Below are positions 59,550-61,883 of a stretch of 64,000 nt of DNA, one piece after another (the first letter of the stretch is position 1; every line of letters starts with the position of its first letter). The DNA is from Escherichia coli (lineage in GTDB: Bacteria > Pseudomonadota > Gammaproteobacteria > Enterobacterales > Enterobacteriaceae): the NCBI RefSeq assembly GCF_048403405.1, contig NZ_CP183129.1; one strand, written 5' to 3'. The translations under genes were made by a program, and so were the position numbers. The notes under the pieces are model-generated. The model had not been told where the DNA came from. It searched no databases and saw only the letters and a list, made by a program, of their open reading frames with translations.

Positions 59550-61883
59550 TTGGCCAACTCATCCTCACGATATTCCGTTCTGACTGCCGCCCACTGGGGG
59601 CCGATGCTGGTTGAAACCGACGGCGAAACCGTGTTTAGCTCGCGTGGCGCGTTAGTCACAGGAATGGAAAACTCCTTGCAGAGCGCGGTTCGCGACCAGG
59701 TTCACAGCAATACGCGGGTACGATTTCCAATGGTGCGCAAAGGCTTTCTCGCGTCACCGGAAAACCCGCAAGGCATTCGTGGGCAGGATGAATTTGTTCG
59801 CGTGAGTTGGGATGAGGCGCTGGATCTTATTCACCAACAACATAAACGCATTCGTGAGGCTTATGGTCCGGCATCGATTTTTGCTGGTTCCTACGGCTGG
59901 CGTTCAAACGGCGTGCTGCATAAGGCCTCGACATTATTACAACGCTATATGGCGCTGGCAGGCGGTTATACCGGGCATCTGGGGGATTATTCGACCGGCG
60001 CGGCACAGGCGATCATGCCGTATGTCGTGGGTGGCAGCGAAGTTTATCAACAGCAAACCAGTTGGCCGCTGGTGCTGGAACATAGCGATGTCGTGGTGCT
60101 GTGGAGTGCTAACCCACTCAATACGCTGAAAATTGCGTGGAATGCATCCGATGAGCAGGGGCTTTCTTACTTTTCTGCACTGCGTGACAGCGGGAAAAAG
60201 CTGATCTGCATTGATCCAATGCGATCGGAAACCGTTGAGTTCTTTGGCGATAAAATGGAGTGGGTGGCACCGCACATGGGCACCGATGTTGCGCTGATGC
60301 TGGGGATCGCCTATACGCTGGTGGAAAATGGTTGGCACGACGAAGCGTTTCTGGCGCGTTGCACCACAGGTTATGCCGTCTTCGTCTCTTATTTGCTGGG
60401 CGAGAGTGACGGAATAGCCAAAACCGCCGAATGGGCGGCAGGGATTTGTGGTATTGGCGCAGCGAAAATCCGCGAGCTGGCGGCTCTTTTCCACCAAAAT
60501 ACCACCATGCTGATGGCTGGCTGGGGAATGCAACGTCAACAGTTTGGCGAGCAAAAGCACTGGATGATCGTCACGCTGGCGGCAATGTTGGGGCAAATCG
60601 GCACACCCGGCGGCGGTTTTGGACTTTCTTACCATTTTGCCAATGGTGGTAACCCCACGCGCCGCGCTGCGGTGCTCTCTTCCATGCAGGGCAGCTTGCC
60701 TGGCTGCACCGATGCGGTAGATAAAATCCCTGTTGCCCGCATTGTTGAAGCACTGGAAAACCCTGGTGGCGCATATCAACACAACGGTATGAACCGACAT
60801 TTCCCGGATATTCGTTTTATCTGGTGGGCGGGCGGTGCCAACTTTACTCATCATCAGGATACCAATCGCCTGATCCGTGCCTGGCAAAAACCGGAGCTGG
60901 TGGTGATCTCTGAATGCTTCTGGACGGCGGCGGCGAAACACGCGGATATCGTTCTGCCTGCGACCACTTCGTTTGAGCGTAATGATCTCACCATGACCGG
61001 CGATTACAGCAATCAGCATCTGGTGCCGATGAAACAAGTGGTGCCGCCACGTTATGAAGCGCGTAATGATTTTGATGTCTTTGCCGAGTTGAGTGAACGT
61101 TGGGAGAAGGGCGGCTATGCGCGGTTTACGGAAGGAAAAAGTGAGCTGCAATGGCTGGAAACGTTTTATAACGTTGCCCGGCAGCGCGGGGCAAGCCAGC
61201 AGGTTGAATTGCCGCCATTTGCTGAGTTCTGGAAAGCCAACCAGTTAATTGAGATGCCGGAAAACCCGGACAGTGAGCGGTTTATTCGCTTCGCCGATTT
61301 TCGCCGCGATCCGCAGGCGCATCCATTAAAAACCGCCAGCGGTAAGATTGAAATATTCTCGCAGCGTATTGCCGATTACGCTTATCCGGATTGCCCTGGG
61401 CATCCAATGTGGCTGGAGCCGGACGAATGGCAGGGCAATGCCGAACCGGAACAGTTGCAGGTACTTTCTGCTCATCCGGCACATCGTCTGCATAGCCAGC
61501 TGAATTACAGTTCTCTGCGCGAATTGTACGCGGTGGCAAATCGTGAGCCTGTCACCATTCATCCTGACGATGCCCAGGCGCGCGGCATACAAGATGGCGA
61601 TATTGTTCGGTTGTGGAACGCACGCGGGCAAATTCTTGCCGGAGCGGTCATTAGCGAGGGAATTAAACCTGGCGTGATTTGTATTCATGAAGGGGCATGG
61701 CCGGATCTGGATTTAACCGCTGACGGTATTTGTAAAAACGGCGCGGTGAACGTTCTGACCAAAGATCTCCCCAGCTCGCGGCTGGGGAATGGCTGTGCGG
61801 GTAATACGGCACTGGCATGGCTGGAAAAATACAACGGTCCGGAACTGACACTTACAGCGTTTGAACCACCGGCCAGCTCATAA
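59550..61883 (+). CDS. bisC: biotin sulfoxide reductase (molybdopterin oxidoreductase)
   Basis: 777-aa ORF of the DMSO/TMAO reductase family without signal peptide. Confidence 0.9.

Follow-up and report, generated by a model that had tools for sequence, protein, structure and literature searches.

The bisC and yiaC genes of Escherichia coli share an ordinary, ancient tail-to-tail overlap conserved in at least eight genera of Enterobacteriaceae

The convergent genes bisC and yiaC of Escherichia coli end inside one another, sharing 32 bp in which both strands code for protein, and this arrangement is an ordinary, ancient tail-to-tail overlap in which no dedicated regulatory device was identified. 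We consider it highly probable that the overlap reflects passive gene packing kept by dual protein-coding constraint, that Rho clears the read-through transcription, and that any antisense interference is a by-product. The stretch of DNA analysed here, referred to as the window, comprises 64,000 nucleotides of an E. coli genome (assembly GCF_048403405.1, contig NZ_CP183129.1); positions are those of the window unless MG1655 coordinates are indicated.

Reading of the sequence together with the list of open reading frames placed bisC at 59550..61883 on the plus strand and yiaC at 62292..61852 on the minus strand, so that 61852..61883 is common to both. The TAA of bisC occupies 61881..61883 and the TAA of yiaC is the reverse complement of 61852..61854. 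On the plus strand the shared segment is read as (L)TAFEPPASS* of BisC, and on the minus strand as (I)MSWPVVQTL* of YiaC. The two genes thus lie on opposite strands with shared 3' nucleotides, which is what characterizes a convergent overlap. The same 32 bp are annotated by PGAP/RefSeq in strain TUM14771 and in K-12 W3110 and MG1655; in the MG1655 RefSeq record, yiaC spans 3713652..3714092 (+) and bisC spans 3714061..3716394 (−). An earlier note on this DNA had placed the bisC stop at 61883, 32 bp into the 3' end of yiaC, and had described a 4-bp overlap of yiaC with tag; the sequence, the open reading frame list and RefSeq all agree with the first statement, and the second corresponds to an ATGA at 62289..62292. 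The coordinates of the overlap can be trusted because stop codons, unlike start codons, cannot be mis-chosen and because both open reading frames are real genes. At the other end of bisC, the annotated start at 59550 is a TTG with an AGGAG 8 nt upstream. The features around the junction are listed in Table 1.

Table 1. Features of the bisC-yiaC junction and its surroundings (window positions).
Feature	Position	Strand	Basis or remark
bisC, biotin/methionine sulfoxide reductase, 777 aa	59550..61883	+	ORF, Pfam, RefSeq; TTG start annotated
Dual-coding convergent overlap	61852..61883	both	32 bp, phase 123:132
yiaC, GNAT lysine acetyltransferase/lactylase, 146 aa	61852..62292	−	ORF, Pfam GNAT, RefSeq; TAA 61852..61854
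YiaC codons I137-W140, predicted end of last GNAT-fold beta strand	61873..61884	−	AlphaFold2 (AF2) model and ortholog alignment
YiaC codons P141-L146, predicted short flexible tail, sequence-variable	61855..61872	−	AF2 model and ortholog alignment
tag, 3-methyladenine DNA glycosylase I, 187 aa	62289..62852	−	ORF, Pfam, RefSeq
ATGA, tag stop/yiaC start overlap	62289..62292	−	same strand, 4 bp
Untranslated tag-yiaC read-through, antisense to bisC	61600..61851	−	published Rho region and C-rich composition
Terminator-like hairpin in bisC, 9 pairs, weak U tract	61767..61789	−	63 nt past the yiaC stop

Both protein ends encoded by the shared segment belong to established folds. BisC carries the Pfam domains Molybdopterin and Molydop_binding, and its residues align with solved DMSO/TMAO reductases up to position 775 of 777. 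Its tail pairs with GPAVTLTGFVAPK of the DMSO reductase of R. capsulatus and with TorA, 2–3 residues from the ends of these proteins, which shows that BisC inherited its tail as part of the ancestral DMSO-reductase fold. The plus strand of the overlap therefore specifies the last ten residues of BisC, within this ancestral fold. YiaC, whose lysine acetyltransferase and lactylase activities have been described experimentally (PMC6199490, PMC9636275), matches its solved paralog YjaB in size (146 and 147 aa, respectively). The AF2 model of YiaC has a mean pLDDT of 94.8 and places the final beta strand at residues 133–140; only residues 144–146 fall below a pLDDT of 50. M138 and W140 are invariant across 25 orthologs, the total length of which is 143, 146 or 148 aa. 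On the basis of the model, the YiaC share of the overlap is shown as the predicted end of the last strand followed by a loose tail of six residues.

Upstream of yiaC, the start codon (reverse complement of 62290..62292) and the TGA of tag (reverse complement of 62289..62291) are interlocked, and this ATGA junction suggests a tag-yiaC operon with coupled translation. The tag/yiaC overlap varies among relatives: E. coli and E. albertii have the 4-bp ATGA form, E. whittamii shares a single base pair (TAATG), and the overlap amounts to 20–26 bp, mostly 23, in Salmonella, Citrobacter, Enterobacter, Kosakonia and others, where Tag has 192–193 aa. The shorter overlap in Escherichia therefore indicates that the Tag tail was shortened in this genus. 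The Citrobacter rodentium locus has no called tag gene, and the tblastn match there is confined to Tag residues 90–186, so that, judging from this match, tag looks truncated or pseudogenised there; yiaC and its overlap with bisC are intact in this species despite the state of tag.

We then considered how widely the junction is conserved. The segment 61400–62400 is 100% identical to that of strain TUM14771 and 95–99% identical to that of nearly all other complete E. coli genomes, and a 72-bp probe spanning the junction was found at ≥95% identity in 5421 of 5426 complete E. coli genomes. Beyond the species, a scan of contigs with YiaC gave five Escherichia loci, and the other genera were reached through homologous proteins and the contigs encoding them. 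The lineages measured all belong to Enterobacteriaceae (Escherichia, Salmonella, Citrobacter, Pseudescherichia, Enterobacter, Kosakonia, Lelliottia and a Raoultella-type sequence). The overlap is retained in 17 of the 17 lineages, representing at least eight genera, with a length of 23, 32 or 38 bp. The 32-bp form was observed in seven Escherichia lineages, Salmonella, Citrobacter amalonaticus, C. rodentium and Pseudescherichia, and likewise in the Raoultella-type sequence, Enterobacter ludwigii and one metagenomic enterobacterium. Kosakonia and Lelliottia have 38 bp, and one metagenomic lineage has 23 bp. Thus, even though YiaC identity between genera is just 54–65%, the overlap is retained. 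The earlier note had envisaged related genomes in which the stops are placed so that no overlap exists; every relative examined within Enterobacteriaceae has one. A complementary search with the C-terminal 200 aa of BisC returned chiefly gene fragments; of the two genomic contexts inspected, one was a TorZ paralog locus and the other an assembly riddled with frameshifts, and neither was informative.

Elsewhere in the window, two insertion-sequence differences from TUM14771, the closest complete genome, were noted. A 1441-bp IS3-family copy at 19355..20795 lies at another place and in inverted orientation in TUM14771, and the window is devoid, at about 46501..46507, of the IS200 that TUM14771 has between xylB and xylA.

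Comparison of the lineages revealed what determines the length of the overlap. A Leu-Thr codon junction in BisC, read on the opposite strand, provides the yiaC stop: CTT|A gives TAA and CTC|A gives TGA, while a synonymous CTG extends yiaC by 6 nt to the next such junction. Conversely, an Asp to Asn change in BisC (TTT|AAC) creates an antisense TAA, by which yiaC ends 9 nt earlier and YiaC is three residues shorter. These comparisons show that BisC codons set the position of the yiaC stop.

To describe selection within the shared segment, 11 lineages (three Escherichia and eight other genera or lineages) were compared over the 10 codons of the overlap. Invariant columns make up 72% of the overlap, as against 53% of the bisC-only flank and 45% of the yiaC-only flank. 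The difference is more pronounced at third codon positions, which are saturated in the flanks. For bisC, 4 of 10 third positions are invariant in the overlap compared to 1 of 43 in the flank (Fisher p = 0.003), and for yiaC the corresponding values are 8 of 10 and 3 of 43 (p = 7e-6). The frozen wobble bases of BisC (in GCG, TTT and GCC) face the second codon positions of YiaC T145, Q144 and W140, and the variable YiaC residues (139, 141–143 and 146) arise from variable BisC wobble bases. Purifying selection therefore acts on both frames within the overlap, and it is stronger on BisC than on YiaC. The overlap persists because both protein tails are under selection, which is enough to explain its conservation. 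Its retention in every lineage examined could alternatively mean that the overlap as such is selected.

We wondered whether an overlap of this length and phase is unusual. In the antisense frame of yiaC across bisC, stop codons occur at 0.022 per codon, giving a probability of ~0.82 that nine antisense codons are open by chance; the overlap's length is thus not beyond chance expectation. The codon positions 1, 2 and 3 of bisC lie opposite positions 1, 3 and 2 of yiaC. This phase, 123:132, is the commonest among convergent overlaps, accounting for 49% of them over 58 genomes and 46% in E. coli, and a simple model of stop-codon mutation predicts 39%, close to the observed share (PMC2174442). The phase found here is consistent with an origin by mutation of a stop codon.

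Rarity was assessed from published statistics and from the frequency in the annotated region matching the window; in that region, 3 of 11 convergent pairs have overlapping coding sequences, namely bisC/yiaC, yiaU/yiaV and hokA with a hypothetical open reading frame of 23 aa. The genes yiaV (+) and yiaU (−) both end in TTAA, with 4 bp in common at 17453..17456, and yiaU-yiaV is the second pair from the window that is listed as an excludon (PMC12288877). It resembles bisC-yiaC in being a convergent overlap of annotated coding sequences with an excludon listing, but differs in that only 4 bp are shared, the two stops use one palindrome and no amino acids are dual-coded. The third pair consists of hokA (+, 55343..55495) and a predicted open reading frame that PGAP calls a hypothetical protein (−, 55543..55472), which overlap by 24 bp at 55472..55495. 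Around hokA, an Rfam match to sok antitoxin RNA was observed at 53747..53901 (+), ~1.5 kb from the gene and with an IS150 in between, an arrangement that we take to be the IS-disrupted hokA/sokA locus of K-12-like strains. A cspA thermoregulator lies nearby at 55628..56055 (−).

Set against the convergent overlaps described for prokaryotes (Rogozin et al. 2002; Lillo & Krakauer 2007, PMC2174442; Pallejà et al. 2008, PMC2478687), bisC-yiaC differs in nothing essential. As in those cases, two real genes share 3' ends of less than 50 bp in the most frequent phase, a Leu/Ser-type codon junction in one gene gives the stop of its partner when reverse-complemented, and the overlap is conserved in relatives with purifying selection on both frames. 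The putative true long overlaps (>60 bp) of Pallejà et al. are mostly conserved in very close species only (PMC2478687); bisC-yiaC, at 32 bp, spans more genera than most of them, although those exceed 60 bp. By every property tested, bisC-yiaC is a true conserved convergent gene overlap.

Given that the stop codon of each gene has to lie within its mRNA, the bisC and yiaC transcripts necessarily overlap. The earlier note had proposed that the two genes are transcribed into each other, and besides this reasoning, two published data sets support the proposal. ExcludonFinder lists yiaC-bisC among 165 convergent MG1655 pairs whose transcripts overlap in at least 50% of 58 RNA-seq samples (PMC12288877). 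Moreover, a bicyclomycin-sensitive, that is Rho-dependent, termination region antisense to bisC has been reported at MG1655 3714344 (+) (Adams et al. 2021, PMC7815308). The reads upstream/downstream of this point were 90/23 without bicyclomycin and 60/112 with it (PMC7815308), and the region has a Rho score of 7.3 (p = 5.5e-14; PMC7815308 supplementary file 2), mapped at the coarse resolution of 800-nt windows (PMC7815308). By coordinate mapping, MG1655 3714344 lies 252 nt beyond the yiaC stop, at about 61600 on the minus strand of the window.

The first ~250 nt past the yiaC stop are C-rich, with C/G ratios of 1.26–1.92 in 80-nt windows, as expected for Rho loading on untranslated RNA. Untranslated, C-rich and G-poor RNA is thus present upstream of the termination zone. 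Rho-dependent termination of antisense read-through at convergent genes was reportedly described by Peters et al. in 2012. The 'antisense' class is frequent among the Rho regions listed by Adams et al. (PMC7815308), and the case described here shares with that class the untranslated C-rich RNA and the bicyclomycin-sensitive termination antisense to a neighbour gene; the mapping covers the passage of tag-yiaC into bisC, in coarse windows. Adams et al. 2021 (PMC7815308) give no curated Term-seq 3' end at MG1655 37139xx-37144xx or 37133xx-37138xx, and for the bisC transcript itself neither a curated Term-seq 3' end nor a Rho region was found in their data.

These observations can be assembled into the following sequence of events. 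The overlap exists because the tag-yiaC operon and bisC abut without a spacer, and, intergenic DNA being absent, both transcripts have to end within the partner gene. Each ribosome halts at its own TAA inside the opposite gene. According to the published data, the tag-yiaC transcript enters bisC in antisense for ~250 nt before being stopped by Rho; bisC transcripts would likewise enter yiaC in antisense. With both units active, some mutual interference may arise from the complementary 3' ends and from polymerases meeting head-on, and it is likely small because both units are weakly expressed.

The strongest alternative is a functional excludon, in which collision of RNA polymerases or cleavage of double-stranded RNA by RNase III makes bisC and tag-yiaC antagonistic and the overlap itself is selected; this would tie the repair of oxidised biotin/methionine to the repair of DNA alkylation and to protein acylation. 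Excludons are a class proposed to give mutually exclusive expression (PMC12288877). The membership of yiaC-bisC in the MG1655 'excludome' (overlap in at least 50% of the 58 RNA-seq samples; PMC12288877), the ~250 nt of tag-yiaC read-through antisense to bisC ahead of the Rho stop and the conservation of the overlap across genera all speak for it. However, any overlap of coding sequences forces the transcripts to overlap, and the listing therefore adds no evidence of regulation. The pair is itself one of the 165 convergent MG1655 excludons and has the same 3' transcript overlap as the others, but it qualifies by this overlap only, whereas an excludon is defined by expression of one unit excluding that of the other, through interference or RNase III. 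Conservation, in turn, is accounted for by the constraint on two protein tails, while neutral-looking codon changes in BisC shift the length among 23, 32 and 38 bp; furthermore, there is no conserved RNA structure and the published read counts are low (90 reads per 800 nt). Our literature search found no report of opposing regulation of bisC and tag-yiaC. We consequently regard a functional excludon as rather improbable. One form of it, a true excludon kept across Enterobacteriaceae, in which head-on transcription and 3' double-stranded RNA let high levels of the sulfoxide reductase damp the glycosylase/acyltransferase operon and vice versa, appears more doubtful still.

Another alternative is that a shared bidirectional intrinsic terminator in the overlap or its immediate flanks stops both transcripts. 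Two structures could be invoked, the 9-pair hairpin with a weak U tract on the minus strand (61789..61767) and a hairpin of 10–12 pairs on the plus strand at ~61910-61946. In a consensus scan, 61789..61767 (−) was the only terminator-like site near the junction, and the region as a whole had 6 such sites against a shuffle expectation of 5.0; counts from the promoter scan of the region also matched shuffle expectation. The z-scores of RNA folding, −1.9 around the 61789..61767 hairpin and −1.0 on the plus-strand side, were not significant. The plus-strand hairpin is devoid of a U tract and has one stem pair broken in K-12, and the stems of both flank hairpins are not retained outside Escherichia. 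Moreover, no curated Term-seq 3' end lies nearby, and the termination that has been mapped depends on Rho and lies 250 nt away. Overall, neither scanning nor folding nor cross-genus comparison pointed to a conserved hairpin, a terminator or any other dedicated element within the overlap or next to it. For the coupled expression of the two genes that the earlier note had suggested as a possibility, no supporting sequence feature was found. The candidates for a bidirectional intrinsic terminator are weak, one-sided, at chance frequency, non-conserved and not matched by a Term-seq 3' end, and this explanation was rejected as very unlikely; the hairpin at 61767..61789 is probably incidental.

The weakest alternative, an annotation artefact in which one frame is unreal or spuriously extended at its 3' end by a lost stop or a frameshift, has a precedent in the 124 of 178 overlaps >60 bp that are 3'-extension errors (PMC2478687), but its probability is negligible here, and both misannotation and a 3' extension by stop loss were ruled out, given that the two proteins match their domains over the full length and have conserved orthologs of equal length, that the BisC end matches solved homologs, that the end of YiaC, in a strand modelled with confidence, carries the invariant residues M138 and W140, that YiaC enzymatic activity is published, and that the same stops are found in thousands of genomes.

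The overlap of bisC and yiaC is already known from the standard E. coli K-12 annotation and from a published list of overlapping transcription. What is added here is that it is no annotation error and is common to at least eight genera of Enterobacteriaceae, that its exact length is dictated by codon choice in BisC, and that both tails are under selection. If the excludon reading were true, the pair would add a further case to a regulatory principle already known. The arrangement also has consequences for the genetics of the locus. A full deletion of bisC would strip yiaC of its last nine codons and its stop, including those for the invariant M138 and W140, and a full deletion of yiaC would take away the end of bisC. 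The laboratory strain E. coli BE104 is without bisC; homology at its locus resumes 8 nt outside the yiaC stop (cf. 61844) and yiaC is whole, which illustrates that deletions here must respect the overlap.
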